A stretch of 64,000 nucleotides of DNA. Origin: Alphaproteobacteria bacterium (GTDB lineage Bacteria; Pseudomonadota; Alphaproteobacteria; Rickettsiales; JADKJE01). The translations under genes were made by a program, and so were the position numbers. The stretch covers positions 7,544-71,543 of the forward strand of contig JADKJE010000004.1 of assembly GCA_016722515.1 (NCBI GenBank). The letters run 5' to 3'. The notes below the pieces were generated by a model. It had not been told where the DNA came from. It ran no database searches and saw nothing but the letters and a program-made list of their open reading frames with translations. Below, piece after piece: positions 17,781 to 42,919 of this stretch (its first letter is position 1; every line of letters starts with the position of its first letter).

Positions 17781-17796
17781 CGATGGAGAATCCCAC

Positions 17797-21851: not shown

Positions 21852-21861
21852 TTTCAGGCAG

Positions 21862-21875
21862 TTGATCCACATCAA
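21862..21875. promoter_or_regulatory. perfect FNR/Dnr box TTGAT-CCAC-ATCAA upstream of the moa leader
   Basis: Perfect consensus match. A class II spacing would put the transcription start near 21910, at the 5' edge of the Moco riboswitch. Confidence 0.65.
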
Positions 21876-21904
21876 TTGCTAAAACGCCTTTCCTTTTTAC
21901 CCTT

Positions 21905-22026
21905 CCATCATCCGAAGCCTGAAACGCCTAACGGCTGACATGTGCCAGTCCAAGGATTTCAGGCCGTGGGCATAAGCTCACCGGGTAGCGGCGGAAACGT
22001 CTCTGCCTCCCGCGTTTGGAAAGGAT
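21905..22026 (+). promoter_or_regulatory. molybdenum-cofactor (Moco) riboswitch in the moaA leader
   Basis: CCGAAGCCUGAAA...GGAUUUCAGGC (perfect 8-bp stem, 21917-24 with 21957-64), CUCACCGGG, GCCUCCC (22005-11) and GGAAAGG (22018-24) directly before the ATG. These match my recollection of the E. coli moaA Moco motif. No covariance model was run. Confidence 0.75.
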
Positions 22027-25246: not shown

Positions 25247-25485
25247 CCCTTACCGTCAATCTCTTCGGTGCGTTTCGTGGGCATGAGAATGGCAAACCAC
25301 TCACACTTAGCCTGCCACATGGCGCGACGCTGATTGAGGCACGGCGTGCACTCAAAGCCGCACTTGATAACAATCCGCTGATTGATGATTCCGCACTGGC
25401 CGATGAAACGCAAATTTTGCCCGAAGATGCGGTATTCGAGCGCGACACCCAGCTCGCCATTCTGCCACCCGTGTGCGGAGGCTGA
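25231..25485 (+). CDS. moaD: molybdopterin synthase sulfur-carrier subunit
   Basis: 84 aa ending in ...LPPVCGG (C-terminal Gly-Gly). Confidence 0.85.
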   Translation: MSGSITLTVNLFGAFRGHENGKPLTLSLPHGATLIEARRALKAALDNNPLIDDSALADETQILPEDAVFERDTQLAILPPVCGG

Positions 25486-25487
25486 CG

Positions 25488-25940
25488 ATGACGCAATCCA
25501 TCTATACGGGCATCAGCGAGGAAACACTATCCATCCAAAAAGCCGCCGATTTTGTGGATGCGGCGGAGAATGGCGCGCTGAATATGTTTATCGGCAAAGT
25601 GCGCAATCACAATATGGGCAAGGCCGTGAATGCGGTGAGTTACGATGTATTCGCGCCGCTGGCCTGCAATGTGTTTCAGGAAATCTGCGCGGAAGCGACG
25701 GCGCAATTCGGCGAGCGTCTGCGGCTTTATATCGAGCATTACAAAGGCAAGCTGGAGATTGGCGGCATTAGCGTCATCATCGCTGTCGGCTCGCCCCACC
25801 GCGATGAATCCTTTCAGGCCTGCCGTTACCTGATCGAGCAACTCAAAATCCGCGCGCCGATCTGGAAGCAGGAACATTACGTGGACGGTGTTAGTGAGTG
25901 GGTCAAAGGCCATACGCTCTGTGGGCATCACCATGGATGA
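25488..25940 (+). CDS. moaE: molybdopterin synthase catalytic subunit
   Basis: ATG at 25488, 2 nt after the moaD stop. MoaE-like ...FIGKVRNHN...PIWKQEHY. Confidence 0.9.
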   Translation: MTQSIYTGISEETLSIQKAADFVDAAENGALNMFIGKVRNHNMGKAVNAVSYDVFAPLACNVFQEICAEATAQFGERLRLYIEHYKGKLEIGGISVIIAVGSPHRDESFQACRYLIEQLKIRAPIWKQEHYVDGVSEWVKGHTLCGHHHG

Positions 25941-26490
25941 TGTTGCCGCAGTCATACTAGTCGGAGGCAAATCCTCGCGCATGGGGCAGGATAAGGCATT
26001 GCTGCCTTACAAGGGCAAGCGGCTGGTGGATGTGGTGGCGGATACGATACGAGCCGCTGGTGTATCGCGTGTTTATGTGAGTGGTAAAATCGCTGATTAC
26101 CCAAGTTTCCCCGATCTGCTTTCAGAGTGCGGCCCGGTGAGTGGTATCTGTTCTTGTATTTTAAGATTGTCGATAAATTACAAACGGCTGCTTTTTGTGC
26201 CGGTTGATATGCCTTACCTGACAGAAGAACTGATTCGACTGCTTGTGGATTGCCCTGCACATAAAACGCACCACATTGAAAATCATCCGCTTCCCTGCAT
26301 TATTCCGACGGATGAAGCGGCCACACGACATGCAGATAGCTGCATTCAGGAGTTGGTAAAGAAGAAAAAATTGTCCGTAAAAGAATTTTTAGCGAGGCTA
26401 AACGCAATATCAGTACCGCTATCAAGGCAGATGGAAAAGGCGCTCACCAACACCAACACGCCGGAAGAATGGCAGGAGGTCATCTCATGA
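25933..26490 (+). CDS. mobA: molybdenum cofactor guanylyltransferase
   Basis: ATG at 25933 (MDDVAAVILVGGKSSRMGQDKALLPY), overlapping moaE by 8 nt. Confidence 0.85.
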   Translation: MDDVAAVILVGGKSSRMGQDKALLPYKGKRLVDVVADTIRAAGVSRVYVSGKIADYPSFPDLLSECGPVSGICSCILRLSINYKRLLFVPVDMPYLTEELIRLLVDCPAHKTHHIENHPLPCIIPTDEAATRHADSCIQELVKKKKLSVKEFLARLNAISVPLSRQMEKALTNTNTPEEWQEVIS

Positions 26491-26807
26491 ATCTACGCAT
26501 CAGTGAAAATCAGCTTCGCTTTCGCATCACGCAAGGAGAGACAGAACTATTAAGGCAGGATGGTGTGCTTGCTTTCTCGCTCAATCTCGGCGCGCAGACT
26601 GTGGAATATTCCGTGGCACTTGCAGAGATAGAACAAACCTTGGCATTGGACGTACAGAAAACTGCGTGGAAGCTGCTGGTGGATCGCAAAGATTTTAGTC
26701 AGTTTCTGGCATCATTGCCCTCACGTGAAGGGATTGAGCAAACGGTCACGATGAATGGCGCTCAGATTGAACTAGTGCTGGAAGTGGATGTCCGGCGTAA
26801 ACGCTGA
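26487..26807 (+). CDS. hypothetical protein translationally coupled to mobA
   Basis: ATGA overlap with the mobA stop, and GGAGG 8 nt upstream. 106 aa with no family that I recognise. Confidence 0.45.
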   Translation: MNLRISENQLRFRITQGETELLRQDGVLAFSLNLGAQTVEYSVALAEIEQTLALDVQKTAWKLLVDRKDFSQFLASLPSREGIEQTVTMNGAQIELVLEVDVRRKR

Positions 26808-27319
26808 CGCTGCGCGCGTTGCTCCATTTGTCCTAAAGCAACGAAGCACAACATCACTACTACAGCAAAGCCTGCCAGGAATTCTGGATAAGACCATACG
26901 CCATAAGCGAGCGGTTTGGCGCATCCAAGAATGGCACCGTAAATCCAGCAGGCAATATTGACGCTTGCAAGCCGCAGCATTGGCCGAGGATTTCCCAATC
27001 TGAGCTTCGGCACCGCGTAACGACGCATGGCCTGCGTGGAAAGAAACCACAGAACAACCACGGTGACCTTGCACCAGAGTTTGGGATTGGCGAGATACGC
27101 ATCAAATCCCTTTTGCCAAATGCCAAGGCCGATAAGCGCAAAGCCTGAAAGCCATAAATGCACGTCGGCAGAGCGAATCATGCGCGTCCATGTTTTATCG
27201 TAGGAAATAATGCCCAGCAGGCTTTTGAGTGAGAAATGGATGTAAATCAGCCCGAACGCGAAGCCCAGCACATGCCAGAAAGCAGAGAGCGTAATCAGAA
27301 AGCCGATGACTTCGCTCAT
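26762..27319 (-). CDS. hypothetical polytopic membrane protein coupled to moeB
   Basis: 185-aa ORF with about five hydrophobic segments. It forms an ATGA overlap with the moeB-rhodanese stop. Its 3' end overlaps the convergent 26487..26807 ORF by 46 nt. Confidence 0.5.
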   Translation of the reverse strand: MSEVIGFLITLSAFWHVLGFAFGLIYIHFSLKSLLGIISYDKTWTRMIRSADVHLWLSGFALIGLGIWQKGFDAYLANPKLWCKVTVVVLWFLSTQAMRRYAVPKLRLGNPRPMLRLASVNIACWIYGAILGCAKPLAYGVWSYPEFLAGFAVVVMLCFVALGQMEQRAQRQRLRRTSTSSTSSI

Positions 27320-28416
27320 GCTAGTTCATCTTTCCATCGCACAATGCCGCCAGTGATGTGGGCAACGTCTCTGAAGCCCAGCGCGACAAGATGAGATGCC
27401 GCCGAGAAACTGCGTATGCCATGCTGACAATAGACGATCACGGGAGTGTCTGAAGTAATATCGCCCACCGAATCTTCGTTGGATAGCAATGTGCCAAGCG
27501 GTATATGCATCGCCTTTGGAATCCTGCCTGATGCCAGCTCATGTGCCTCGCGCACATCAATAAACACCGCTTTACCCATCCGTTTTGCCGCATCTTCTGC
27601 GCTGATATTTTTTACGTCCGTCTTCGCCGCACAACTTTCTTCTGCCTGCTCGAGCACAATATCGCTCGGATTAGCCGAGCATACGGCACATTGATGCCGT
27701 TTATTAAGTTTAAGCGTTTTAGTCTGCATGCTGCGTGCATCGAGTATCCAGAGCGTACCCAGCAGCGGCTCCAGATTTTTTTCTTTGCACCACTCCAAGC
27801 CCAGCGCCATTTTAATGGCTTCAAGCGCCTGCACGGTTCCGGCGATGCCTGCCATTGCACCAATCACTCCCGCCTCGGCGCAGTTGGGAATATGGCCGCT
27901 TGGAGGTTTGGGATACAAACAACGATAACATGGCCCATGACCAGCCCAGAACACCGACACCTGCGCTACAAAGCCCAGTATCGAGCCGTAAACCAGTGGC
28001 TTGCCAAACTTCACGCAAGCATCGTTAATCAGAAACTTACTGCTGAAATTATCCGTGCCGTCGATAATGACATCATAATTTTTCAGTAACGCTTCTGCAT
28101 TCTCTGCACTGAATCGCTCAAAATACGCCTCAATCTGACATTCGGAATTCAGCTCGGCCAGTGCCGCCTTCGCCGCCTCTACCTTCGGCTTTCCCTGATC
28201 GGCTTCCTTAAATAACACCTGCCGTTGCAGGTTGCTGATATCCACCGCGTCATCATCCACCAGCCCAATGCAGCCAATGCCCGCCGCCGCCAGATAAAGC
28301 AACGCAGGCGAGCCAAGCCCACCCGCGCCGATGCATAGCACCGAGGCGGATTTCAGACGTTCCTGTCCTTCTTGTCCCATTTCGGGAAGGACTGTTTGAC
28401 GAGCATAACGGTTCAT
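27316..28416 (-). CDS. moeB: MoeB/ThiF-type adenylyltransferase with C-terminal rhodanese domain (MoaD activation/sulfuration)
   Basis: 366 aa; YARQTVLPEMGQEGQERL...CIGAGGLGSP nucleotide fold, CxxC pairs, and a rhodanese-like tail ...VIVYCQHGIRS. Confidence 0.85.
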   Translation of the reverse strand: MNRYARQTVLPEMGQEGQERLKSASVLCIGAGGLGSPALLYLAAAGIGCIGLVDDDAVDISNLQRQVLFKEADQGKPKVEAAKAALAELNSECQIEAYFERFSAENAEALLKNYDVIIDGTDNFSSKFLINDACVKFGKPLVYGSILGFVAQVSVFWAGHGPCYRCLYPKPPSGHIPNCAEAGVIGAMAGIAGTVQALEAIKMALGLEWCKEKNLEPLLGTLWILDARSMQTKTLKLNKRHQCAVCSANPSDIVLEQAEESCAAKTDVKNISAEDAAKRMGKAVFIDVREAHELASGRIPKAMHIPLGTLLSNEDSVGDITSDTPVIVYCQHGIRSFSAASHLVALGFRDVAHITGGIVRWKDELA

Positions 28417-28450
28417 ATCCTCACGTTAGAATTCTGGAAGATTCTGGTGA

Positions 28451-28464
28451 TTGATCTGGGTCAA
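28451..28464. promoter_or_regulatory. FNR-like box TTGAT-CTGG-GTCAA
   Basis: One mismatch. The centre is only about 42 nt from the moeB ATG, so its function is uncertain. Confidence 0.4.
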
Positions 28465-28547
28465 CACAATTGAACGAACTAGAAATCAGAAAGCAACCAA
28501 CTCGTTAACCTCTTGTTAACCAAAGGTTGCATTCTCACTGAAAACAG

Positions 28548-29170: not shown

Positions 29171-29692
29171 ATGAGCAGAAGCCAGAGCTTGACAGGAGTT
29201 GAGCGTACATTCGCTAAGAATGAGGTGATTGTCAGCAAGACTGACACCAAAGGCATCATCACCTATGCCAATGAGGTTTTCTTGAAACTGGCGGATTATA
29301 GCCTTCAGGAGATTCTTGGAAAACCACATAATGTCATACGACATCCAGATATGCCGAAACTGGTCTATAAACTGCTCTGGGAGCGCGTTAAAAGCGGCAA
29401 AGAGATATTTGCCTATGTGGTGAATCGCTCAAGGAATGGCGATCATTACTGGGTGTTCGCGCACATCACTCCATCGTTTGATGCCGCAAAGAATATCGTC
29501 GGCGCACATTCAAATCGTCGCTGCCCAGACAGACAAGCGATTCAAACGATCACCCCGATTTATCAACTATTGAAACAGGAAGAAGAAAAACACCCCATGG
29601 CAAAAGACGGCATGGCGGCTTCACTTGCTCTGCTCAACTCTGTCCTTGCTGAGAAAGGAGTCAGCTATGATGAATTTATCCTCTCTCTCTAA
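29171..29692 (+). CDS. stand-alone Aer-type PAS (FAD-binding) domain protein
   Basis: 173 aa; [74 protein letters not shown] matches the Aer PAS core. Confidence 0.85.
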
Positions 29693-30959
29693 AACGGGGT
29701 GGCTTGGCATTTTATCAACCATCGCTATTGTGATTGCACTGTTTCAGACCAACTATGCCGCGCCGCTGCTAAGCGTCGCCGTCATTCTTCTGGGAGCGCA
29801 AGCCTATTACATACACAAGATGAAAGTGATGGCGCATGTGATCGCTGAGATTACGGGGCGGTGCGCAGCGGGGGATATGGAATCACGCATTCTGCTACCC
29901 AAAGAACGCGGCGATCTGGCTAACATGATCAGCCGCATTAACGACAGCATCGACATGGCTGATGCCTATGTGCGTGAATCGCTGGCGACACTGGAACATG
30001 CAGCAGAGGAAAAATACTACCGCAAAATCGTGCTGGTGGGCATGGATGGCTGCTATAAAAATGGTGCCGAAATCATGAATGGCGGCATGGATGCCATTCG
30101 CCGCAATATGATTCGCTCCGTACAGAAAGCAGCGAATAAACTCGAGGAAACCGTAAAGAAGACGGCGAATGATCTCGCCGCCTCCACACGCCAGCTGCAA
30201 GCAATGTCGGATATGCTATCCACTGTTGCGGAAAAAAGCTCTACGCAGGCAGCCGGTCTTACCAATGCCAGTGATGACGCTTCCAGAAACGTAAGCACCG
30301 TCGCGGCGGCTGTGGAAGAGCTATCCGCGTCGATTGGAGAAATTAATCAGCAAATCAACCAATCCAGCACGATTGCACGTCAGGCAACGGATAAAGCAAC
30401 ACAGACGAATACGGTGCTTGCCAACCTGACCACCGGCGCGGAGAAAATTGGCGGGATTATTGACATGATTAACGGGATTGCTGGCCAGATTAATCTTTTG
30501 GCTCTCAACGCAACCATTGAGTCTGCTCGCGCGGGAGAAGCTGGCAAGGGCTTTGCAGTTGTCGCCTCTGAAGTAAAAACGCTTGCGAACCAGACCACAA
30601 AAGCAACCGTTGAAATCACTGAATATATTAATGCAACACGCGAAGCTATTCACCAGACCACGGCATCGGTAAGAGAAATCGCGACTGTAGTACAAAAAGT
30701 CGATGAAATCGCCACCGCCATCGCCGCAGCTATGGAAGAGCAAACAGCAGCCACGCGAGAAATATCAAACTCGATTCAAAAGACGGCCCAGAATACTGCA
30801 CAGGTTTCAAGCGCAGTGAGTGATATGTCCCTTGCTGCACAACAAACAGGAACGGCAGCAAAAGACATGAAACAGTCGTCTTCGGATTTGACGGCGCAGT
30901 CTGGGGTATTACACCGCGAGATTGATAGTTTTATCGCTGAAATTCAGAATGCTGCTTAG
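29667..30959 (+). CDS. methyl-accepting chemotaxis protein (TM hairpin + signalling domain)
   Basis: ORF 29625..30959. ATG at 29667 with AAGGAG 6 nt upstream. Two N-terminal TM segments; the conserved MCP hairpin [33 protein letters not shown]. Confidence 0.85.
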
Positions 30960-30962
30960 CTC

Positions 30963-31610
30963 CTAAAGGCCACCTAGTGGGTTAACACCTAATAAGTGCT
31001 CGTGGAGTAGCAGTGCACATCCATACAGAGCCAAACTGACGACAACTCTCACAAAACCTATCTCCTTGAAGGCACTTACGATAGTGTCTCTTGGCATCTT
31101 CACGCATGGGATAATGGAGGTGTTTTTAAGCAATGCTGGGGATGATTGCTTCATCTGCAGGGTATTTTTAACCATCGCAAAAACCGCAATGACAAGCATG
31201 CACACAAACAGCAGGACGCGTTTTGTATCTCCAATGCTTAAGAGGTGTAGCAACGCCCAAAGCACAATCCCAACGCTTCCCGGAAAGCGACTCACGCGGT
31301 AAATACCATATGGCACCGATGTTTTTGGGTATGGCGAACTAATGCGGCAAACCATAAAGAAAAAGGCAATCAGCATGCAGACAACGACCCATGGCCTTAT
31401 GGCCAATGCCGGCTCATAAAGCGGTATATAGTCATCAAACTGCTGGTAGCTGTGAATCACCGCAAACAATGCGGCCAAGGAAATAGCGGAATACAGCGTA
31501 TAAAAAACTGGTTTGGGAAAGAAGCCGACCAGCTTTTTTCTGACCTGCGGCCATGAGAGTAGCGCATGTGATAAAAAGAGTAGCGTAAGGCTGATGATAT
31601 AGTGTGTCAT
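30963..31610 (-). CDS. NnrU-like membrane protein (tentative)
   Basis: 215-aa polytopic ORF. Its N-terminal pattern and denitrification context suggest the NnrU family, but the assignment is weak. Confidence 0.4.
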   Translation of the reverse strand: MTHYIISLTLLFLSHALLSWPQVRKKLVGFFPKPVFYTLYSAISLAALFAVIHSYQQFDDYIPLYEPALAIRPWVVVCMLIAFFFMVCRISSPYPKTSVPYGIYRVSRFPGSVGIVLWALLHLLSIGDTKRVLLFVCMLVIAVFAMVKNTLQMKQSSPALLKNTSIIPCVKMPRDTIVSAFKEIGFVRVVVSLALYGCALLLHEHLLGVNPLGGL

Positions 31611-31643
31611 GGCGATAAATTAGTCGATTCTAGGGGCTTGCAT

Positions 31644-31657
31644 TTGACCTGCATCAG
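31644..31657. promoter_or_regulatory. degenerate FNR-like box TTGAC-CTGC-ATCAG
   Basis: Two mismatches; lies between the divergent nnrU-like gene and tauE. Low confidence. Confidence 0.25.
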
Positions 31658-31713
31658 TTTTTATTCTGTGCTGCTATGCAATATAGCCTACGAAAAAACA
31701 TAAAAGAAACACC

Positions 31714-32457
31714 ATGACACCAGAAGAACTCATTCTTACCGCTCTGATTTTTATCGCTGCTACGCTTTATTCCAGCGTGGGTCATGCAGGAGCATCCGGC
31801 TATCTGGCGGCGATGGCCTTGTTCGGGCTTGCCCCCGAAACCATGCGCCCCACCGCTCTTGCGCTGAATGTACTGGTGGCCTCACTTGCAACCTATCGCT
31901 ACGCGCGCGCAGGCCAAAATGACTTGAAGCTGCTGATACCATTTGTGGTGGCCTCCATACCCGCTGCGTTTGTCGGAGGGATGATCCATATACCACCTGC
32001 TTTTTATAAACCTCTGATTGGAATCATATTACTACTCTCGGCATTTCAACTTTTACGTACTGCTAAAACATCAAAACAAAAAGATCGGAAGGTGCAGCGA
32101 CCTCCGCTTGCAGCATCACTCGCCACAGGCGCAGGACTTGGGTTGCTTGCGGGACTAAGCGGCACAGGTGGCGGCATTTTCCTTAGCCCATTGCTGTTAT
32201 TCATGGGCTGGGCACCTACGCGCAATGTGTCGGGAGTTGCAGCCAGTTTTATTCTCGTTAATTCTATTTCGGGACTTCTTGGGAATATATCTTCGCTTCA
32301 GGCTTTGCCATCAGCACTTTCGGTGTGGGCAGGCGCAGTGCTGCTTGGTGGACTTGTAGGCACACAGCTTGGCACACGCACTCTTACCATCCCAGGCATC
32401 CGCATCATGCTGGCGCTGGTATTGGTGATAGCGGGTGGGAAGATGCTTCTGGCATAA
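31714..32457 (+). CDS. TauE/SafE (DUF81) family anion exporter
   Basis: 247-aa membrane ORF with a duplicated 4-TM organisation and Gly-rich motifs typical of the family. Confidence 0.75.
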   Translation: MTPEELILTALIFIAATLYSSVGHAGASGYLAAMALFGLAPETMRPTALALNVLVASLATYRYARAGQNDLKLLIPFVVASIPAAFVGGMIHIPPAFYKPLIGIILLLSAFQLLRTAKTSKQKDRKVQRPPLAASLATGAGLGLLAGLSGTGGGIFLSPLLLFMGWAPTRNVSGVAASFILVNSISGLLGNISSLQALPSALSVWAGAVLLGGLVGTQLGTRTLTIPGIRIMLALVLVIAGGKMLLA

Positions 32458-32460
32458 AAA

Positions 32461-32483
32461 GCCCCGCAAGAAGGCGGGGTTTA
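32461..32483. terminator. bidirectional rho-independent terminator between tauE and nsrR
   Basis: AAAAA-GCCCCGC-AAGAAG-GCGGGG-TTTAAAATT: a 6-bp GC stem flanked by an A-run and a T-run. Confidence 0.65.
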
Positions 32484-32540
32484 AAATTAATACAAAAAAC
32501 ACTTTCCGCTGATCTTCGTCGGATGAGTCCTCCAAGTTTT

Positions 32541-32966
32541 TTACCGACAGCCCACAACCGATTGGTTGCTTATCACCACGTCATCCAGCGTATGCTGGTC
32601 AAGTGTGTTAATAAAAACCTTGCTTGCATCTGCCAGAAAATGCTTCAGCTTACAAGCGCTGACGACCGTGCATGTATTGGCTGCACGGTTGAAGCATTCC
32701 ACCAGATACATGTTCGGCTCCAGTGCGAGAACAAGATCGCCTAAGCATAGTTCTTGAGGTTTACACGCCAGTCGAATGCCGCCGCCTTTGCCTTTGCTGC
32801 TGGTAACGTAGCCAAGCTGGGCAAGGCGATGCGCCACCTTCACCAGATGGTTTCTGGAGATGGCGTAATGCTCGGCTATTTCACGCACGCTGCATAATCT
32901 ATCCGGCTGGGCGGCCAGATACATCAGGCTTCGCAAGCCGTAATCGGTAAATTGGGTGAGTTGCAT
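32541..32966 (-). CDS. nsrR: Rrf2-family NO-sensing repressor
   Basis: 141 aa; MQLTQFTDYGLRSLMYLA..., three C-terminal Cys (ECFNRAANTCTVVSAC). It is divergent from hmp. Confidence 0.85.
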   Translation of the reverse strand: MQLTQFTDYGLRSLMYLAAQPDRLCSVREIAEHYAISRNHLVKVAHRLAQLGYVTSSKGKGGGIRLACKPQELCLGDLVLALEPNMYLVECFNRAANTCTVVSACKLKHFLADASKVFINTLDQHTLDDVVISNQSVVGCR

Positions 32967-33002
32967 AATCGCCTTGTAAATATCTGAGAAGTGATCATAA
33001 CC

Positions 33003-33029
33003 ATAATATGTATTTTATCTACATATTAT
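33003..33029. promoter_or_regulatory. putative NsrR operator: perfect 10-bp inverted repeat ATAATATGTA-N7-TACATATTAT
   Basis: Read directly from the sequence. It is AT-rich with ATGTAT/ATACAT half sites like known NsrR sites. It lies 13 nt upstream of the hmp ATG, in the nsrR-hmp divergent region. Confidence 0.7.
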
Positions 33030-33041
33030 AAAGGAGATGCC

Positions 33042-34262
33042 ATGTTAGACGAAAAAACCATTGCGATTGTTAAATCCACCGCACCCGTGCTGGCCGAGCA
33101 TGGTGAAACCCTGACGCGGCATTTTTACAAGCGTATGTTCGCGCATAATCCGGAAGTAGCCCCGTTTTTTAATCCGGCGAATCAAACCGCAGGCAAACAG
33201 CAACGCGCCTTAGCTGGCGCGATTACGGCATATGCCGCTAACATAGACAATCTGGAAGTATTGGGTAGCGCAGTAGAGCTAATCGCACAAAAGCACGCAT
33301 CGTTGATGATTAAGCCAGAGCATTACCCGATTGTGGGGGAAAACCTGCTTGCATCCATTCGCGAAGTGCTAGGCGAAGCAGCAACGGATGACATTATCAA
33401 CGCATGGGCTGCTGCCTATGGTTTCCTTGCCGACATTCTGATTGGTCGTGAAAAACAAATTTATGATGAAAACGCCAAAAAGCCGGGTGGATGGGAAGGC
33501 TTTAAGTCATTCCGAGTGAGTCGTAAGGAAAAAGAAAGCAGCAACATTACCTCGTTCTATCTGGTTGCCGCCGACGGCGCACCGCTTCCTGCATTCAAGC
33601 CGGGGCAATATATCACCGTGCGGGTCAAAACCCCGGATGGCCAAACCACCATGCGTAATTACAGCCTGTCTGACAAACCGGATCAGCCGCATTTCCGCAT
33701 CAGCGTGAAACGCGAGCTTCCGCCTGAAGCAAACACGCCAGCCGGTTATGTTTCCAACATGCTGCACGACAAAGTGGAACCGGGCGATACGATTGAACTC
33801 GCGCCGCCGTGCGGGGAGTTCTTCCTCGATGTAACCGAGAAGCACGAACGCCCATTGGTACTGCTTGCCGCTGGCGTTGGCATTACGCCGATCATGAGCA
33901 TTTTGCTTTCGGCGCTGGAGGCATTTCCTAAACGCGACATCATTTTCGTCCATGCCGTGTTGAACGAAAGCGTGCAGGCTTTTGGCAAAACGGTGGATAC
34001 GCTTGCACAGCAGCACGCAAATCTGAAAATCTATCATCGCTACAGTGATGCCGGAGAACGTACAGGCAATGCCAGTACCGGCTTTGTCACTGCGGAGTAT
34101 ATCGAAGGGTTATTGCCAGCGCGGGATGCGGACTATTATTTCTGCGGACCACAGCCCTTCATGGTGTCCATCTATCACGACCTGATAAAATGGGGCATCC
34201 CGGCATCGCAGGTGCATTTCGAGTTCTTCGGACCGCGTCAGGAACTGGAAAAGGCTGCTTAG
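33042..34262 (+). CDS. hmp: flavohaemoglobin (NO dioxygenase)
   Basis: ATG at 33042 after AAGGAG. MLDEKTIAIVKSTAPVLAEHGETLTRHFYKRMFAHNPEV is collinear with E. coli Hmp. The FAD/NAD reductase domain follows. Confidence 0.95.
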   Translation: MLDEKTIAIVKSTAPVLAEHGETLTRHFYKRMFAHNPEVAPFFNPANQTAGKQQRALAGAITAYAANIDNLEVLGSAVELIAQKHASLMIKPEHYPIVGENLLASIREVLGEAATDDIINAWAAAYGFLADILIGREKQIYDENAKKPGGWEGFKSFRVSRKEKESSNITSFYLVAADGAPLPAFKPGQYITVRVKTPDGQTTMRNYSLSDKPDQPHFRISVKRELPPEANTPAGYVSNMLHDKVEPGDTIELAPPCGEFFLDVTEKHERPLVLLAAGVGITPIMSILLSALEAFPKRDIIFVHAVLNESVQAFGKTVDTLAQQHANLKIYHRYSDAGERTGNASTGFVTAEYIEGLLPARDADYYFCGPQPFMVSIYHDLIKWGIPASQVHFEFFGPRQELEKAA

Positions 34263-34306
34263 AAGCGGTTAAAGCTGGCTAGGTTGTGGGTTTAATACCG
34301 CACTTG

Positions 34307-34747
34307 CTATGATGCGTAATGCTTGGTCTCTGCCTGTCTCCGCTTTACCAGCCCGCGCAGCTTCTTCCTGCCAGCCCAGACCCAGCGTAGAAATTCGGCT
34401 GGCACGTCATCATGTTCTTCGCGGTTTACTTTGCGGCGGAGGGTGGAGCGTTGGAGCGCCCCACCGCCCAGATTGAACGTGAATGACACCAGCGCATCGA
34501 ACTGGCCGTTGGTGAGTGGCACGGTGATCAGGCGCAGCACCGAACGCTCGGCGGCTTCCACATCCTTGTTCAATAACGCGATAGCAGCCTCGTGGCTGAT
34601 ACCGCGCCGAAACATCTCCGCTTCATTCGGACGCAGCAAATGCCCGTAGCCAATCGTGGGCAGGCCTGCCGCATCCACATAGATCGTCGGAGAAAAGCCT
34701 TCGAAGCGCTTAATCAGGCTCAGGCCTTCTTGTGTGACGTGTCTCAT
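34307..34747 (-). CDS. phage endolysin, GH24 (T4/lambda-type lysozyme)
   Basis: 146 aa; EGFSPTIYVDAAGLPTIGYGH shows the E-8-D-5-T catalytic spacing. Confidence 0.9.
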   Translation of the reverse strand: MRHVTQEGLSLIKRFEGFSPTIYVDAAGLPTIGYGHLLRPNEAEMFRRGISHEAAIALLNKDVEAAERSVLRLITVPLTNGQFDALVSFTFNLGGGALQRSTLRRKVNREEHDDVPAEFLRWVWAGRKKLRGLVKRRQAETKHYAS

Positions 34748-35169
34748 TTCCCACCCCGAACTTTAGCCATAGCGCGTTGGCCGAAATAAAAGCTGATGAT
34801 GCCTGCGAAAATCGCCTGGTCTTCAGCCGTCCATAGCAACCACGGAAGATCTGCCGAAAACTGCATCACCTTCACCAGCGCATAGAGAATGAAGAAGCTG
34901 TAAGCGATGACGGGGCGCACGGTGCCGTTGAGTGCGTCCACCCAGCGAATGCCTGTGTTGTACGTCCGATAAAGAGCTTGGGATTCGGCGATGTCGGCGT
35001 TCACTTGGATTTCTTCCAGCCGCTGGGAAGCCCCGAGCTTCTGCTGCTCCATCTGCATCTCTAAGATTTTAAGCTCGTGCTTGCGATCCTGCGCGTCGCG
35101 GAACAGTTTTAAGAAATCAGGAAAGGCTGCAGACAGGAAGCCGAGTAAAGAACCGAGTAGCGTAATCAT
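34744..35169 (-). CDS. holin (GTA-type 3-TM holin family, tentative)
   Basis: ORF 34744..35238. ATG at 35169 preceded by GGAGG. It has an N-terminal TM, a coiled region and C-terminal TMs, and it overlaps the lysozyme start. Confidence 0.6.
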   Translation of the reverse strand: MITLLGSLLGFLSAAFPDFLKLFRDAQDRKHELKILEMQMEQQKLGASQRLEEIQVNADIAESQALYRTYNTGIRWVDALNGTVRPVIAYSFFILYALVKVMQFSADLPWLLWTAEDQAIFAGIISFYFGQRAMAKVRGGK

Positions 35170-35180
35170 AAGAACCTCCA

Positions 35181-35408
35181 TTATTTCCAGGAAAGATGAC
35201 CAGCGGCGAAGCTGAGAAAGGCCACCAAGCCCGTCCATAAGCCGCCAACGATCAACAGCGTGCGCAGGCTGCCCTTGCCCTGGTTGGCCAGCGCGGTGAG
35301 CGACTTCACTTCCTCTGCCAACACATCAACCGTTTTGGTGAGTGTTTGGATCTGCGCATTCATCACAGCCAGCTGTGAGCGCACATCAATATCGTCGCTT
35401 GGTGACAT
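35181..35408 (-). CDS. small coiled-coil / C-terminal TM protein of the lysis cassette
   Basis: 75-aa ORF with the hydrophobic tail LLIVGGLWTGLVAFLSFAAG. It is the first gene after the terminator at 35432-35455. Confidence 0.4.
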   Translation of the reverse strand: MSPSDDIDVRSQLAVMNAQIQTLTKTVDVLAEEVKSLTALANQGKGSLRTLLIVGGLWTGLVAFLSFAAGHLSWK

Positions 35409-35431
35409 GGTTCCTCCTTAAGTTTGGGCAT

Positions 35432-35455
35432 AAAAAAACCGCCTCAAAGGGCGGT
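35432..35455 (-). terminator. rho-independent terminator between the fibre genes and the lysis cassette
   Basis: Minus strand: ACCGCC-CTTTGA-GGCGGT followed by TTTTTTT. Confidence 0.65.
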
Positions 35456-35503
35456 GTTTCATTTTGGGATTTGTGGGTGTCTTGGGGGTATTTTGAGAAG
35501 TTT

Positions 35504-36931
35504 TTACTCAAAATAGCCGTTGATCATCACCAACCCACGGATGATCTGGGATGCGGTGGCGGTTGCCACCGGTATGCGAAGGATGACATGGGCAAAAGTG
35601 CCTGCCGCCACATAGAGCGGTGCATCAAGGTTCACGTCGATGGGTGTTAATGCGCCACCAATCGGCGTTCCCACCGGCATGGACTGGATACCCAGCGGCA
35701 CCCGGCGCGGCGAGCGTGTGCCTGCGGTGTTGGAATCCGCTGTGGCAAGCGACACGGCGGTGGAGCCAATGCCCAATGCCCATTGTAAAAGCGTGGGTGT
35801 GGTGGCAGAAGCCGCGCCCATATTGAAAGTTTCAATCCGCACCCCACGGATCACCAGATTGCGGTTGCCGCCACCGGCTGCCGCTACTGGAACCTGAAAG
35901 GCAAAGAGCGCGTAATCGGTTTCCGCACCGGCCACGGCTGCAAACTGAAACTGGCCGCCCAGCGTGGTGTAGCCCGCCGCCGTATTGGAAAGCGTGGCGG
36001 ATACCGGCGCTGCGCTGTTGGCATAGTTGGCAGACTGCGCCACCGCTGCGCCGCGTGGGTTGTTGTAGCTGCCACACTCTGCGCCAGCCATTGCCGTAGG
36101 CCAGAGGCGGTTTAGTGCCAGATCACGGGCAATCACCGATACATCGGCCACTTCCATGCGCTGAGCGGTGCCGGTTGCGGCGGCATTGTAGCAGCGCATG
36201 AGCAGCGGCTGCCAGCGTGACAGCGATACGGCGGCGGCAGTATTTGGTGACAGGATCACGCCTTCTAATACCCCGTCGATAAAGAACTCGATCCGATCCT
36301 GATCAATCACGATGCGGTAGTGGCTCACTTGTCCGGCCACGGGCGAAGGCATCGGCGCGGTGGTTGTTTCCGTGCCGTTGATATTCATCACGCCCACCAG
36401 CACGCCAGCGGTGTTGAGTTTGAAATATACCCCATCCGTTGGCGTGGCAGTCGTTGCGGCAAAACCAACACCGAACTCGCAGACATTGTTGGCGATGGGA
36501 TTATTGGCAAAGCGCTGCCTGAAGGCAACTTCCAGTGATCCTGCCGGATGCAGTGGGAAAGTTCGGAAGGTTTGCGCCCGTGCTACCGCTGCCGATGCGA
36601 CCGAGTTACCAGCATTTAGCACCAGAAAGCCGCCTGTCATGGCGATGGTGGCCGTCACGCTGACAAATTGATAGGCACTGCCATCCACCACCGTGTGATT
36701 GAAGGTATCCGCCCAGTAGATATTATCCACGCCCACGCGCAGGCGGCCATCGGTTGAAACCCGTGCGGCACGAACCAGTCGCGGCTCGCCGCTTTGCCCA
36801 TCGTGAGATTCCCCGGCAAGCACCGAGTAGCCAGCATCCACCAGCTCCATCGGCAGGTTGATCTTCAGACGTTTATTGGCGTCCACCGATGCAAGATCGG
36901 CAGAATCACCCGATTTGAGAATGATGCTCAT
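35504..36931 (-). CDS. phage structural protein, probable distal fibre / receptor-binding protein
   Basis: 475-aa ORF, the last gene of the tail/fibre operon. The call rests on position and a Gly/Ala/Thr-rich beta-type composition only. Confidence 0.4.
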   Translation of the reverse strand: MSIILKSGDSADLASVDANKRLKINLPMELVDAGYSVLAGESHDGQSGEPRLVRAARVSTDGRLRVGVDNIYWADTFNHTVVDGSAYQFVSVTATIAMTGGFLVLNAGNSVASAAVARAQTFRTFPLHPAGSLEVAFRQRFANNPIANNVCEFGVGFAATTATPTDGVYFKLNTAGVLVGVMNINGTETTTAPMPSPVAGQVSHYRIVIDQDRIEFFIDGVLEGVILSPNTAAAVSLSRWQPLLMRCYNAAATGTAQRMEVADVSVIARDLALNRLWPTAMAGAECGSYNNPRGAAVAQSANYANSAAPVSATLSNTAAGYTTLGGQFQFAAVAGAETDYALFAFQVPVAAAGGGNRNLVIRGVRIETFNMGAASATTPTLLQWALGIGSTAVSLATADSNTAGTRSPRRVPLGIQSMPVGTPIGGALTPIDVNLDAPLYVAAGTFAHVILRIPVATATASQIIRGLVMINGYFE

Positions 36932-36932
36932 G

Positions 36933-37589
36933 CTATAACCCCATTATGTTGATGTTGTACCGTCCCCAGCTGCCACCCGGCGCATGGGCAATCACGTCGA
37001 AACCAGAACCTTCCACCAGATTGCAGGCCGTGGCCGTAATGCCTTCGAGCGCCCCATCTTCGGGATCATGATCCGCTGATCCTGACGCCACCGCGCAGAG
37101 GATCACTGACCCGCTTGCCACCCATGCAGCAGACACCGATGCACGGGCGAAGTTGCTTTCCCCACCGGATGCGTGGCCAAAGTCCACCTGCGCCAGCGCC
37201 GTGTTTGGCATGGCCGATTGATCTGCCTTGGTATCGAGCGCGGTTTGTAGCCCTGCGACATCGGCAATCGTGTGTCCGTGGCTGGTACTTGCCTTTGCAT
37301 CCAGTGCCGCCTGAAGCCCTGCGACATCCGCCACGCTATGCCCGTGTGCTGCGTTTGCTTTGCCAGCCAGCTCGGCATCCACCTGCACCTTGGTGTAATA
37401 GCGCACATCGCCACGCGCATCGGTGTGGTATTGGGGATGATCATCGGCCTCCAGCCCGTTCAGGCTGGCGTGGTCAATATCTCCGCCGGTGCCGTGTGGT
37501 CCCTGCGTTCCAACCGTCACCACTTGCACTTTCGGCTCGGTGACTTTGACGATATGGATCACTTCGTTAATGGTGACTACTTCCGTCAT
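36933..37589 (-). CDS. tail fibre protein with tandem HGH-x2-ADVAGLQ-x-ALD-x-KA repeats
   Basis: 218 aa; DDHPQYH motif, then HGHSVADVAGLQAALDAKASTS / HGHTIADVAGLQTALDTKADQS. Confidence 0.6.
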   Translation of the reverse strand: MTEVVTINEVIHIVKVTEPKVQVVTVGTQGPHGTGGDIDHASLNGLEADDHPQYHTDARGDVRYYTKVQVDAELAGKANAAHGHSVADVAGLQAALDAKASTSHGHTIADVAGLQTALDTKADQSAMPNTALAQVDFGHASGGESNFARASVSAAWVASGSVILCAVASGSADHDPEDGALEGITATACNLVEGSGFDVIAHAPGGSWGRYNINIMGL

Positions 37590-37939
37590 CGCGTTACCTC
37601 CGGGCTGATGATCACCAGCCCTTCCAGCAAGCGAGTGACGTTCGCGCCTGAGACAAGCTCAAGGTCATACACGCCGCTGATGGCGGTAATGGTTGTGGTT
37701 TGTGTGGCACTGGCCAGTAGCTGGATGGTTCCCGCCACCCCGCCGAGGGTGATGCCGCCGTTTTCCGTGGTGAGTGTTAGGAACGGATCAGCGGCTTCGA
37801 GTGTTTCACGCATGTGCATCCGGGCGGTGAAGCCAGTCAGGTTCACAGGCGTGCCGCTTTCGTCCTTCCATTCGATCTGCTCGCTGAACGTCGCGCCGCG
37901 ATACACATAGAAATTATGCTTGGCTGGGTGTGTGGTCAT
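37586..37939 (-). CDS. small phage structural protein (Ig-like fold suspected)
   Basis: 117-aa ORF overlapping its neighbours by 4 nt. The call rests on context only. Confidence 0.4.
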   Translation of the reverse strand: MTTHPAKHNFYVYRGATFSEQIEWKDESGTPVNLTGFTARMHMRETLEAADPFLTLTTENGGITLGGVAGTIQLLASATQTTTITAISGVYDLELVSGANVTRLLEGLVIISPEVTR

Positions 37940-37943
37940 AAAA

Positions 37944-38657
37944 TTACCATGTCCATGGGCCGCGTGGTTTGAGATATTGCATCGTGGTGCGGATCACGCC
38001 GCCCGTGAAGTTTCCACCGTTGGCAGTCAAGCGAATGGCCGTGTTGGCGTAGTACGCCAGAGGGCTGGTGATACCGATATTGGTGGAATCAAGCGCAATG
38101 CCGATCAGGTTGCCGTATCGCGTGGTATCGCCAACCACCCCAATGCCAAAGGATGTCGCGCCTGTGATTGCTGTAATCACGCGCACGTTGACCGCCAGCA
38201 CAATAGCGCGGTCGGGAATCTGAATCGTGGTATCCTTGAATGCGCCCGTGTTGACCGTCACATCCTCGGTTTTATGTTCCACACGCAGATATTCACCGGT
38301 TTCTTTGAGCAGCAAACCTTGTGGCACCCAGTTTGTGCCATCGAACATCACATATTCGTCGGTGGTTTCATTCCAGAGCTTCAGCCGCTTGAATGGGGCA
38401 ACAAAAAACCAGCCACCACCATCCACCGCTTGAGCAATCTGGCTTGCTTTGCCTGCCCATGCGCCTGTGGGGGATGAACCCACCACCCAGCATTGCCCGA
38501 CTGTGGGGCTACCAGGTGGCGTGTTCAAACCCACATCCTGCACGACCGCCTGAATCAGCACGTCGAGAATATTGAGTGCATCATTATGTGTCACTTCCTT
38601 CTGGCTTTGCGATTGCAGAATATAAGGCAGCAGTAATCGTCCGGTGTTGTTGGGCAT
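37944..38657 (-). CDS. DUF2793 family phage fibre-associated protein
   Basis: This is the C-terminal 237 aa of track ORF 37944..39608, from the ATG at 38657: MPNNTGRLLLPYILQSQSQKEVTHNDALNILD. That is the DUF2793-type N-terminus usually found after gp15-like genes. Confidence 0.75.
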   Translation of the reverse strand: MPNNTGRLLLPYILQSQSQKEVTHNDALNILDVLIQAVVQDVGLNTPPGSPTVGQCWVVGSSPTGAWAGKASQIAQAVDGGGWFFVAPFKRLKLWNETTDEYVMFDGTNWVPQGLLLKETGEYLRVEHKTEDVTVNTGAFKDTTIQIPDRAIVLAVNVRVITAITGATSFGIGVVGDTTRYGNLIGIALDSTNIGITSPLAYYANTAIRLTANGGNFTGGVIRTTMQYLKPRGPWTW

Positions 38658-38730
38658 CGGATGGTCCCCTGGTTGAAGGGGCCATTGGTAAGTTTTCAGA
38701 TGCGTTCGTGGGGCGTTACGCTCAGTTTTG

Positions 38731-39194
38731 GGACGGCCACGCCGGCGTCGGGCGGGGGGGGCGCCCGCAGGGGGGAGGGCCGCCCCGCGCGGGGGGCCGG
38801 CCCCCGCCGCGCCCGCCCGCACCCCCCGCCGGCCGGGCGCGCCCCCCCCCGTCCAAGCCCCCGCCCCCCCGGGGCGGCCCCCCGCGCCCCACCGCGCCCC
38901 CCCCCCCACCCCACATAACCCGGTCCCCGCCCTCCCCACCCCCCTGCCCCCCCCCAGCCCCCCCCCCCGGCCCGCCCCCCAAAGTCCCTCCAGGAAGACA
39001 CCCACCAAAGAGAACCCTCTGACAAAAAAAGACGATACCCGTGAGAAAGCGGGTCCCGGGCGCCGGCCGGACCCGGACGCGGCCGGCGGGCCGGGCGGGG
39101 GCCCGGCGCGGCGGGGGAGGCCGCGCGAGGGCGGGGAAAGGGGCGGCGGGGGGGCCCCGCAGCGGGCGGGCCCCGCGAGAAGGCCGGGAGGCGC
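38731..39194. repeat. 464-nt extreme-GC low-complexity tract with opposite-skew arms around a 76-nt normal-composition core
   Basis: Read directly from the sequence. There are C runs of 9-11 nt at 38842-50, 38897-907, 38947-55 and 38958-68. The G-rich arm is 39057-39194 and the core is 38981-39056. No reading frame here looks like protein. Confidence 0.9.
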
Positions 39195-42100
39195 CATGGC
39201 TATGCCTGCATTGCCACGCCCGACTGCTGCTGAAAGCTGATAGACTTTCACGCTGACACTGCTTTGCGCCGATCCGAAATCGGTCACCTGCTGCGCGGCG
39301 GTGTAGATGGTTATGGGCGAAGTCAGACCAGTAATCGTGCGTTTGAGCGTTACACCCTGCATGATTTCCACCTCGTAGCGTTCCGACTCCTCGGAAAGCG
39401 GAATGTCCACCGCGTCCCGCCAATCCCCACCGATCCGTGTGCGACGCTTCCAGCCGATGGTCAGATCGCTAGCCACATTTCGGCTGCCTACGATATGCAC
39501 TGGCGCGTATGGCTTGAGCGCCTTGCGGCATAGGTAAAATCCTGCGCAGTTGTCGCCCCTAGCGTGGAGCCGATGGTAACAGGTTTGTACTTTTTGCTGA
39601 TGCTCCATCCTGATGATGCCACCAGCTCTCGCGCCAGGGCGTTGGTGAGCAGAATAAAACGCTCACCCGCCACATGGCCAGAAACTGCCCATTCCGTGCC
39701 AAGCCTGCCGCGCAGAAGCCGCGATAGACGGTACTGGTTGTCGCCGATGAGAGTTGCCGTTTGAAATTGCAGCACCTCATCGCCAATGACGCAGACATTC
39801 GCACCATTCAGCACCGCAATCTCGGTCACGCTCTGCAGCTCGCCAAAGGTGAGCAATACATCAACGCTGCCCGTGACATCCCATGTGTAGGCCGTGCCAG
39901 CAGGTAGAATGGTTAAGGCGGCACCAATCGTTGCCTGCGCGGTTAAGGATTGCATCAGAGCATAGTTGGCACCGCCATCGTCGGAGCGGTAGACTGCCGA
40001 TCCCGTCCATTCACCACCAAGCCCAACTACTCCATAGCGCAGATATGCATCCGTTACCGCATCAGTCGGGAATGCTGGCAGATCAAGTAGATCCAGTCGC
40101 GTGGCGGAAACCGTTGTGGGCGGCTGAATCGCGGGTGCACCACTACCTGCAGGATTGTAAAAGTCGTAACTGCTGACATCTTCCGCGACCGCTGCCAGCT
40201 CCTGCACACCGTTTCGCACCAGCTTGGATGCCGTCACACGCATGAGATAGGCTGCACCATCCTTGGTGATGGTAATAACATCGGTCGGCTCCAGCAGCGC
40301 ATATTTCGGAGGCACGGTCAGCTGATACTGCACACGCCCAACCCATGCATTGTAGAGGGTCACATCCGCCACCACCTTGGCTTCCTGATCGGACAGTACG
40401 ATGGGTAGGTTCACCGTCACATAATCCACGGCTTTGACTGTTTGCCGCTGCGAGGACTGCGTTCCTGCCTGATAATCTGCCGTGCGGTTCAGGTAAATCA
40501 CATCTACCTGACGCGGCAGCTCCAGCTCCTGCGTGCGGGTGATGGCAAGTGTATCGTTGGCATCGTCCTGTGCCACCAGTTCGGTGAAATCCAGCGTGAC
40601 ATTCGATACTTTGCCGCGCTTGATAAATTTCAGCAGCCCATCGGATTCCACGCAGTCAAAGAAATACGCTGCCGCCAGCTGCTCCAAACATCCGCGCACC
40701 GTCTGGCGGTTATTGATGATGTAGCCACTGACGATATCGGTCAGGCGCGTAACATCATACATAGTGCTGTCATAGCCAACGCGCTTCAGCAAATCGGCGA
40801 CGATCTGCCCGAGATTAGAGAGTCCCAGCTTTCCTTGAATCCAGTGGCCTGTTTTCCAGTTACCGCCATCCGACCAGACGCCGAGCAGATCTGGCCAGAA
40901 TGGAAATGGCCGCGCATCCCATGTCCAGATGAATTTGCGCGGGATAAAGTTGGCTTCCAGCGCATTTTCGTCATCAAGGTAATCAATGGAGGCGTCGAGC
41001 GCGGTGCGCTGTGCCAGAAAGTCCACCCGCGCACGCGAGCCACGGGGATAAAAACTCTCCACCGAATCAGGATCAACGAACACGTTCGGCTGGTTGGCAC
41101 AGCAATCCACAGAAGGAAAGCCAAGCTCAGAGAACCACACGGGCTTCATTTTGGCAGCCCATGCCGTGCCGCTGGCATCGGGGTTAGTATGGGTGGAATT
41201 CCACCAGTGCTTGACGTTTTTCCATGCGTAAGTGGGCGAACCGCCATAGCTGGTGAAGCCTGTGCGGTTCACCGAATCAGCATAGTAATAATCCCAGCCT
41301 TCGTCCTGCGTCCAGCCGTCATAAACCTTTTGGTAATCAATCTGTGTTTGCGGCAGGTCGGGTGTGAGTGGGAAATAGCAGTCAATCGCCACCACATCGA
41401 TGTTACTATCCGACCAGAGCGGATCGAGGTGATACCAGCCGTTCGAGGAATGATATTCGCTCCAGTCACCGCCATACATCACCTTCACGCCCGAACCCAC
41501 GGCTGATTTCACGCTGGCGGCAAGACTCTTTAGCTGGGCAACGGCAGGAAATACGCCTGCGCTGCTCATATAGGTGGTGAGTCCCACCAATTCCGAACCG
41601 ATCATGAAAGCGTCGATGGTGTTTTTCAGCAGCACGCCGCCGACATTCAAATTGGCGTAATGATTAATAAAAGCGTTGTAGCCGTTGCTGCGCGTGAAGA
41701 AATTATTGGCATCTGTTGCGGTGGTGGGGGTGATGCGCCCACGCCACGGCTTGCTTTGCGGCGTGATCGTATCCACTTGCAGCATCGGGTAAAACAGCAC
41801 CTTGTAGCCTCGCGCCTTCAATTCCTGACACAGGCGCACGATGCTTTTGTCGGTGGGCGTACCGCCGTAAGTGGGCGATCCGTCCGGGAATTCGAGGATG
41901 GGGTGGCCAGTGTTGCGCGTAAACCCAGCCACCACCCAATCATCGGGGGCAACACGCGCGCCCTGACTGTCGAACTCGACACCGGGCTTGATGATGCATA
42001 CGGTGGGATCAACTGAATCCGCAAACCAGTTTAGGATAACTGAAACATATTCGACATTCGGCAGCGTTGCTTTCAAATTATCCAACGCGACCAGGCTATC

Positions 42101-42919
42101 CGCTTTATTGCTGAGATTATTCAGGTTCAGCTTGTTGATCTTACCGCCCTGTACGAAATTGCCCGCCACATCCTGCTGGCCGAACGTCTTTTCCTGCACC
42201 ACCGTGTCATAGACATATTCGCCCGCGCCAGGAATTAGGGCTATCTCTTTGATTTTATCTTCAAGATCGAAGGGTTTTTTCAGCGTGCGGCGTACCTCAA
42301 AGGTAAAGTTGGGGATACGGTTACCATAATCGGCTAGGGGGAAATCCTTAATCACCACATAGGCCATTCCCCGGTATGCTGGCGTTTGCCCCGCAGGGTG
42401 GAAAGACGAGATGAAAGTATCAGGCAGCTGGGTTTCATTGCCAAGATAAAGGCTATAGCTGCCCTGCGTGAGATCGAGCGGCTTGGAATCCGCCCATACC
42501 CGTACCACCTCAGTGATCGGCCCCTCGCAAATGGCAATCGCCATGCTGACACTGTAGCTATAGGTCGTGGTGGTGGTCTCCACGCTGCCACCACCGCCAC
42601 CACCTTTGCCGCCGCCAGAGGATTGCGTACTGGTGGTTACGGTTTCCTTGATCGGGCGCGACCAGATGACGTTGCCGGCAATGCGGCTGTTGCCATAAAT
42701 GATGGGTATGGCTTTCCCGTAGGTGGAAAACTGCACCATCAGGTCAGTGAGACGCGAGCCCTCCTGATTGATGCGGGTTTTGCCGCCACCGAAGATTGCG
42801 CGGTCAACAAACCCACCGAGAAAGCCGCCAGCACCACCCGCAACAGCAGCGAAGAACGTCCCTGCGCCCAGCGATGTGGCGGCAGAACTGGCCGCTGCTG
42901 CTAGGACGATTGATGCCAT
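39195..42919 (-). pseudogene. RcGTA gp15-like host-specificity / baseplate protein, frame broken near 39511-39529 and 3' end running into the GC tract
   Basis: ORF 39488..42919 (1143 aa) ends ...TTAQDFTYAARRSSHTRQCIS. The conserved C-terminus ALKPYAPVHIVGSRN...LTIGWKRRTRIGGDWRD...PLSEESERYEVEI...YTAAQQVTDFG...VYQLSAAVGRG continues in the adjacent frame (part of ORF 37944..39608). Confidence 0.85.

Follow-up and report, generated by a model that had tools for sequence, protein, structure and literature searches.

The window, by which we mean the whole stretch of 64,000 nucleotides that was analysed, derives from an uncultured alphaproteobacterium whose closest Hmp match, at 97%, is found in MAGs labelled Rickettsiales, Alphaproteobacteria or Micavibrio. 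It carries a prophage with a tail module on the minus strand, composed of a gp15-like gene, a DUF2793 gene, genes for a 117-aa protein, a PTR-domain protein and a 475-aa protein, and a lysozyme gene. Further along the prophage, genes for the baseplate hub, tape measure, tube, capsid E, decoration protein and S49 protease are present, and a lambda-type portal and a gpA terminase are also encoded. Prophage methylases, namely a C5 cytosine methylase and a protein combining a ParB_N domain with an N6_N4 beta-class methylase, were observed at 59354-60604 and 61218-62459. The locus in question lies between the first two genes of the tail module. The gp15-like host-specificity/tail gene (39196-42919, minus strand) encodes 1243 aa in relatives, whose products match Pfam GTA_TIM, Phage-tail_3 and Rcc01698_C, while the DUF2793 gene (37944-38657, minus strand; PF10983) is intact. 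In the window, the last two codons and the stop codon of gp15 are lost to a tract of extreme base composition that separates the two genes.

The window as a whole contains 53.5% G+C, and the highest value in any 100 nt outside the tract is 0.74, compared to up to 0.97 inside it. A reading made from the sequence only had placed this tract at 38731-39194 and described it as a 464-nt interval of more than 90% G+C, built of a C-dominated arm, a core and a G-dominated arm. The composition is indeed that of an extreme outlier, but the interval amounts to 84.9% G+C overall, and only its arms reach 91-93%. Besides the C-skewed arm (38801-38980), the 76-nt core (38981-39056, 51% G+C) and the G-skewed arm (39057-39194), an additional short G-skewed arm (38731-38800) precedes the C-skewed one. 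On the plus strand, T occupies only 13 of the 464 positions, and it is due to this near-absence of T that the arms are not simple complements of one another. The bounds of the tract also shift when relatives are compared. The unit absent from nine near-identical contigs is the 493-nt segment at 38703-39195, within which all of the G/C-saturated sequence lies, and sequence derived from a moron, a two-gene cassette of related prophages described below, is present from ~38670. This segment has 83.4% G+C, as opposed to 46% in the collinear part of the moron of the related contig L010.

Several details reported earlier are exact in the sequence, including the C runs of 9, 11, 9 and 11 nt, the inverted 13-mer, and the A7 run and ACCCG/CGGGT hairpin of the core. 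The loss of the gp15 stop codon, with the formation of an artificial 554-aa ORF, was confirmed as well, and the stop-free frames ascribed to the scarcity of A/T agree with the composition. It is likewise because of the composition of the tract that shadow ORFs, G runs and an apparent hairpin are seen. In regard to the latter, the arms had been thought to pair into a very long imperfect hairpin. Folded as single-stranded DNA, the tract has a minimum free energy of -176.1 kcal/mol, compared with -180.8 +/- 4.9 kcal/mol for dinucleotide shuffles (z +0.96), and a fold at least as stable was reached by 86 of the 100 shuffles; its inverted repeats match at only 70-80% of positions and pair C-rich with G-rich low-complexity sequence, so the proposed structure is no more stable than chance. 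The dozens of G3+ runs are real in number (31 counted on the minus strand), but they are expected from the composition. No Rfam family matched the tract at E up to 10, the only two hits of the scan being chance hits that both lie outside of it. Eukaryotic rRNA or another known RNA was rejected as an identity of the tract on this basis.

The moron site in related prophages

The DUF2793 protein is identical on 13 public contigs, and in the nine for which DNA was at hand, gp15 stops 30 nt before the DUF2793 start. Compared by blastn, these nine contigs have flanks 94-100% identical to the window, lack 38703-39195, and hold a 30-nt spacer, as had been anticipated when a stop codon and a short spacer were expected in related prophages. 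The coordinates of the relatives are contiguous across the window's insertion (for example, 2545 and 2546 in L006); their junction reads ...GGCATAGCCAT directly followed by CATCTAA..., and the 493 nt of the window are inserted between these two parts. The 300 nt of gp15 adjoining the tract are 100% identical to those of the relatives. Sequence from the runs SRR30545108 and SRR30545109 is 99.5-100% identical to the window. Among independent assemblies, the tract is absent from the nine contigs and carried by none. An exact look-up of products specific to the window, namely the fusion ORF, the truncated gp15, a 1265-aa host protein, DUF2460 and the frameshifted MoaC piece, likewise returned no record, and the phage junction is found in none of the closest GTDB representative MAGs (Hmp 94-97% identical, with the same three labels as above). 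The contig L001 (JGI 3300056808), in which small indels abound (24-31 gaps per ~5 kb) and genes are fragmented, is evidently a long-read assembly of the same prophage that was never polished; even so, its spacer is the normal one of 30 nt.

The look-up of the 475-aa tail-module protein led to the contig L010 (Logan SRR22910096), in which an insertion of ~780 nt and normal composition occupies the same gp15/DUF2793 junction (L010 3492-4274). This moron is intact, with ~45% G+C and at the same junction, in L010/L113, L114, a contig of ERR12160659, L016 (651-1425), L105 (~530-1380) and L106, and at least six assemblies besides the window bear it. Both of its genes are located on the strand opposite to the gp15-like tail gene and DUF2793. 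The product of the first is a secreted, Cys-rich protein of 111 aa that has a signal peptide, and that of the second is a Cys-rich lipoprotein of 104 aa. The two proteins are very rich in Cys, arranged in CxxC/CC motifs, they belong to no Pfam family, and a search of 5.8 billion proteins returned only four related protein clusters. Since the cassette is intact in several close relatives and missing in others, it represents a real presence/absence moron. The gp15/DUF2793 junction is a moron site of this prophage family, sometimes occupied by genes for two small Cys-rich secreted proteins.

A homolog of the Cys-rich lipoprotein, 62% identical, was observed at the end of a related IMG/VR prophage (L097, 570-3315), where it adjoins ORFs that, judged from their translations, resemble a cation-efflux protein and a MerR-type regulator. 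Such a neighbourhood hints at a possible metal-related cargo function.

Collinearity of the tract with the moron

The tract resides at the same junction as the moron in L010, L016, L105, L106 and L114. Global alignment of the tract with the L010 moron gave a score of 187, compared to 83 +/- 7.7 for the locally shuffled tract and at most 138.5 for alignments with other segments of the window. When 70-nt segments were mapped to both strands of the whole 13.4-kb L010 locus under a scoring scheme tolerant of A/T-to-G/C changes, 7 of 13 independent segments of the tract had their best match within the moron, with strand and order both as expected. Furthermore, A/T bases that remain in the tract equal the L010 base at 57 of 68 positions (46.6 +/- 3.3 in shuffles), and a 23-mer in its 5′ part, CCGTCCCAAAACTGAGCGTAACG, is exact in both L010 and L016.

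Read along the plus strand, the moron copy opens at 38670-38745, with sequence of normal composition that aligns to L010 4151-4230 and comprises the 5′ region of the moron as well as the codons for the gene 1 signal peptide. Here, ...GTTACGCTCAGTTTTGGGACGGC... encodes VTLSFGTA of the signal peptide, several small deletions are present, and the start codon of gene 1 is gone. The flank at 38658-38702 has the look of a true intermediate in evolution between the types with and without the moron, and a real moron remnant is for this reason probably present in the strain. The first saturated stretch (38746-38800, plus strand) is G-skewed and covers early codons of gene 1. It is followed by the C-skewed arm (38801-38980, plus strand), which corresponds to the body of this gene and within which 38875-38979 maps independently to L010 3907-4015. 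The core (38981-39056, plus strand) holds the last part of gene 1, then the intergenic region and its ribosome-binding site, and the first lipoprotein codons, with the ATG start changed to GTG at 39041. Searched against all 13.4 kb of the L010 locus, it matches best at 3840-3904 and 3804-3872, in the correct orientation. A weak terminator had been read from the ACCCG/CGGGT hairpin of the core; only one match to a terminator consensus was obtained, against 0.6 expected by chance, and the hairpin at 39037-39054 overlies the former lipoprotein ATG. The second G-skewed arm (39057-39195, plus strand) extends over approximately codons 6-53 of the lipoprotein gene, and 39120-39189 maps to L010 3693-3762. 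At about codon 53 the copy stops abruptly at the gp15 junction, where CCATG is common to the moron sequence TGCTCCATGTGC, and the last ~200 nt of the lipoprotein gene are missing from the window together with the terminator.

On this evidence the alignments show the tract to be a GC-saturated, 3′-truncated rendering of a real moron and not a separate element. Its collinearity with the moron also rules out foreign contaminant DNA as a source. As is typical of phage morons, it lies between two conserved tail-module genes, in the opposite orientation, with a presence/absence distribution among near-identical prophages, and it is homologous in order and sequence to the intact cassette of L010, L016, L105 and L114. 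It differs from them in that its ORFs are destroyed, its start codons are gone, its 3′ end with the terminator is lacking, and its G+C content is 83-97% instead of 45%. Accessory ORFs that are intact, with start, signal peptide and terminator, were not found in the tract of the window, and translated remnants of it gave no Pfam match above the curated threshold.

Base replacement in the tract and other defects of the contig

The pattern of changes was obtained by comparing the tract with the L010 moron, on the sense strand of the latter. C was kept at 107 of 116 positions and G at 103 of 120, a retention of ~90% that is no different from the natural divergence of the flanks, so that the effect is restricted to A/T positions. 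A of L010 was kept 49 times, changed to C 38 times and to G 27 times, and never to T, while T was kept 25 times and changed to C, G and A 60, 41 and 7 times, respectively. In other words, ~57% of A and ~76% of T turned into C or G, with an asymmetry between strands (T kept 19%, A kept 43%), with 87 transitions against 79 transversions, and with practically no change toward A/T. Which base replaces A or T depends on the region, with mostly C in 38801-38980 and mostly G in both G-skewed arms. In the first of these (38746-38800), A/T became G 14 times and C 9 times and was kept 3 times, with G/C kept at 27 of 28 positions; in the second (39057-39195), A/T became G 34 times and C 18 times, and T was kept nowhere. 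The C-skewed arm shows A to C 24 times and T to C 36 times, compared to 4 changes of A and 7 of T to G, with C kept at 54 of 55 positions. In the core, A was kept at 23 of 28 positions and T at 7 of 25. Coding is ignored, Cys codons being turned into Gly, Arg or Pro codons, and ~170 changes within 450 nt contrast with none in the 300 nt next to them. Copying of neighbouring bases was considered and rejected, since the new base agreed with the closest reference G/C, whether to the left or to the right, in 55% of cases, which hardly exceeds chance. To our knowledge, no enzymatic or evolutionary process has such a spectrum. Deaminases push sequence toward A/T, and editing of the ADAR type yields transitions only.

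A base-specific replacement relative to a template-like sequence, in which A on the phage-sense strand is the most depleted base, is shared with the variable regions of DGRs. Such systems act only on adenines of the template, which they can replace by any base, and they depend on a reverse transcriptase and a template repeat. In the tract, A and T are both replaced (A to T in no case, T to A in seven), T is replaced on the phage-sense strand as well, and apart from those seven changes the replacements are only G or C. Moreover, no second copy of the tract that could act as a template repeat exists in the window, no RVT domain was found among the 19 ORFs of the phage region that were scanned, and the affected sequence does not lie at the 3′ end of a receptor-binding gene.

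The tract is accompanied by other base-level defects in the same contig. At 23280, TTTT is reduced to TTT, which splits moaC/moaB (328 aa in relatives). At ~39521-39524, AAA is reduced to AA on the phage-sense strand (TTT to TT on the plus strand), which frameshifts gp15. At 46871, GG is reduced to G, and the tape-measure gene (804-805 aa in relatives) is divided into pieces of 115 and 676 aa. Finally, a deletion at 48678 leaves the tail-tube gene, which encodes 424 aa in relatives, in two pieces of 224 and 200 aa, with Pfam Phage_tube_2 positions 1-149 and 102-266 falling on separate pieces. All four frameshifted genes are intact in close relatives, and their single-base deletions suggest consensus errors rather than pseudogenes. 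On the other hand, counting against an artefact, the rest of the window is clean, with, for example, 0 gaps relative to L011 over ~9.2 kb (29504-38677).

In gp15, which is otherwise of the L003 type, a patch of ~25 nt of the L010 type (AAKALKPY) was observed at 39500-39545, and the gp15 frameshift lies inside it. This could be a small mosaic or gene-conversion patch, or else the outcome of strain mixing in the consensus.

A second private insertion composed only of G and C, the 49-nt AGGTTTGGCCCGCCGCGGGCCGCGGCCCCCCCGAGAAGGGGGCCTGGAT, is located in host DNA at 20163-20211, between the divergent genes for an FAD-monooxygenase and a NIT/cNMP/Crp regulator. It is absent from L099/L103, L100/L104 and L101, three independent and otherwise identical assemblies. 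Over 15075-22500, the window differs from L103 by two mismatches, the 49-nt insert and one extra T located 8 nt away. Hairpins of a flavour similar to the tract had been noticed here, at 20169-20206, in the sequence-only reading. The kinship holds in so far as this is also a private GC-only insertion, but its likeness to the tract stays within that of shuffles (score 14.5; shuffles 11.2 +/- 1.7, maximum 16.5), and its hairpins are what its composition would predict (z -1.12). A search for its template in the window gave a best score of 19.0, below the shuffle mean (21.1 +/- 1.6), and its origin as a GC-saturated copy of window sequence was therefore rejected. No second copy of the insert was found either.

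Origin of the saturated sequence

The unnatural spectrum, the density of changes next to gp15 sequence with none, and the other consensus defects lead us to infer that the saturation was introduced while the data were produced and is no property of the DNA. We regard it as likely that the tract is a data artefact layered on a real moron, corrupted and 3′-truncated. According to this explanation, the template is the real two-gene moron that related prophages carry between the gp15-like gene and DUF2793. The order of the cassette and its G/C positions are preserved, and most A/T would have been read as the locally dominant C or G. Reading by the locally dominant base would give rise to the succession of G-skewed, C-skewed and G-skewed arms, and a less affected intergenic region would form the core. 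The likeliest setting would be base-calling or consensus building at a locus that differs between co-existing strains, within an assembly that bears single-base deletion errors as well. Related to this, the deletion-type frameshifts and the strain-variable moron locus hint at a problem with single-molecule data or with the consensus where the site is heterogeneous. Most likely, then, the tract is the error of one assembly and not a new genetic element.

An artefact had already been among the candidates put forward for this tract, and it is the one favoured here, except in its proposed form of poly-G reads bridging a gap, since G/C positions and order of the template are kept. With poly-G and low-complexity sequencing artefacts the tract shares its occurrence in a single assembly, its extreme G/C content, homopolymer runs, a regional G or C skew, and the company of other base-level errors in the contig. 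It differs from them in retaining the G/C of the template in place and order, with no change of C to G and no gradual decay. Signal loss in two-colour Illumina sequencing predicts C-to-G changes and a gradual decay. The layout of G arm, C arm, core and G arm would fit the orientation of reads decaying at their 3′ ends, but C is unconverted, the composition shifts abruptly from part to part, and the frameshifts indicate data of a different kind; this source was rejected. We can name no documented error mode that turns A/T into G/C while sparing G/C, and nothing usable on base-caller 'hallucination' artefacts was found in the literature.

Alternatively, the few covering molecules could have been densely modified at A, and hence on both strands, for example by an adenine methyltransferase of relaxed specificity, causing a single-molecule base-caller to misread A/T. 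Such a modification would account for errors at A/T only, with G/C spared, and for the strand asymmetry in the retention of T and A. It is also in line with deletion-type frameshifts that suggest a long-read consensus, and with the C5 methylase and the ParB_N plus N6_N4 methylase encoded by the prophage. However, the effect is confined to ~450 nt, leaving the remainder of the phage untouched, the other GC-only insert is located in the DNA of the host, a relaxed adenine specificity of the methylase would have to be assumed, and half of the changes are transversions. We consider this explanation unlikely. An M.EcoGII-like architecture of the ParB-methylase was considered; it was not confirmed in PMC5778455 and was dropped.

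If the tract is real DNA, it could be a dead, GC-saturated moron relic left by a localized, strand-asymmetric conversion of A:T to G:C and C:G in vivo. The collinearity with the moron and the preservation of G/C speak in favour of this, as do the adjacent flank that resembles a natural intermediate and the occurrence of a second GC-only insertion in the same genome. On the other hand, about 170 substitutions would have to be crowded into 450 nt with none in the neighbouring 300 nt, the replacement base tracks the regional skew and obeys no fixed rule, and the assembly has other base-level defects. Furthermore, we know of no bacterial or phage process in which A:T-to-G:C and A:T-to-C:G changes are nearly equal and reverse changes almost lacking. 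We therefore hold a conversion in vivo to be quite improbable, and we give equally little credence to the extended version of it, in which an unknown conversion process acts in the alphaproteobacterial prophage and the 49-nt insert at 20163 is its second footprint. Were it true, the tract would stand for an undescribed hypermutation process directed at A:T.

A GC-rich miniature insertion or repeat family had been proposed too. It would be a MITE/REP-like element inserted at the end of gp15, of which the 49-nt insert at 20163 would be a second, shorter copy. Both sequences are clean private insertions in otherwise identical sequence and both are nearly pure G/C, and short, non-coding, GC-rich private insertions with hairpin potential do recall such repeats. 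Yet the tract is collinear with the moron, hence no foreign unit, and the likeness between the 49-mer and the tract does not exceed that of shuffles. It has no terminal inverted repeats or otherwise defined termini, no target duplication beyond an ambiguous CAT, which is already tandem in relatives, and hairpins as expected for G/C-only sequence. No repeat family was detected either, with no copies of the tract elsewhere in the window, in ~104-114 related loci, in IMG/VR, or in phage and plasmid collections. This held for exact 20- to 35-mers of the core, the left end and the hybrid spacer in IMG/VR, for blastn against the phage and plasmid collections, and for a 3-kb megablast against phages and E. 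coli genomes. Such an element is accordingly very unlikely. Least probable of all is a structured switch, insulator or recombination hot spot controlling the fibre module through a long hairpin, a terminator or a G-quadruplex, for although the folding energy is very negative, the transcribed strand has its 31 G3+ runs and one terminator-like match exists, the folding is that of the composition, no Rfam family is matched, the 'terminator' is the corrupted start-codon region of the lipoprotein gene, and phages 99-100% identical around the tract lack it.

If the explanation by an artefact layered on a real moron holds, the biologically real content of the locus is ordinary. The 554-aa fusion ORF and the Pro/Gly/Arg-rich shadow ORFs would then be unfit for annotation, and the contig would have to be handled as one bearing consensus errors, with its four frameshifts and two GC-only inserts.

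The host part of the window offered some observations of its own. A Moco (molybdenum cofactor) riboswitch was recognized at 21898-22042 (61.4 bits, gathering score 36), upstream of a moaA-moaC/B-moeA operon. The sequence is near-identical to L103 up to ~22500 and ~8% divergent from it over 22500-28500, across the Moco and ThiF-rhodanese genes, and the boundary at ~22500 is, to judge by this pattern, a putative recombination-type mosaic boundary. Within the divergent region, an in-frame deletion of 12 nt is present at ~27940.
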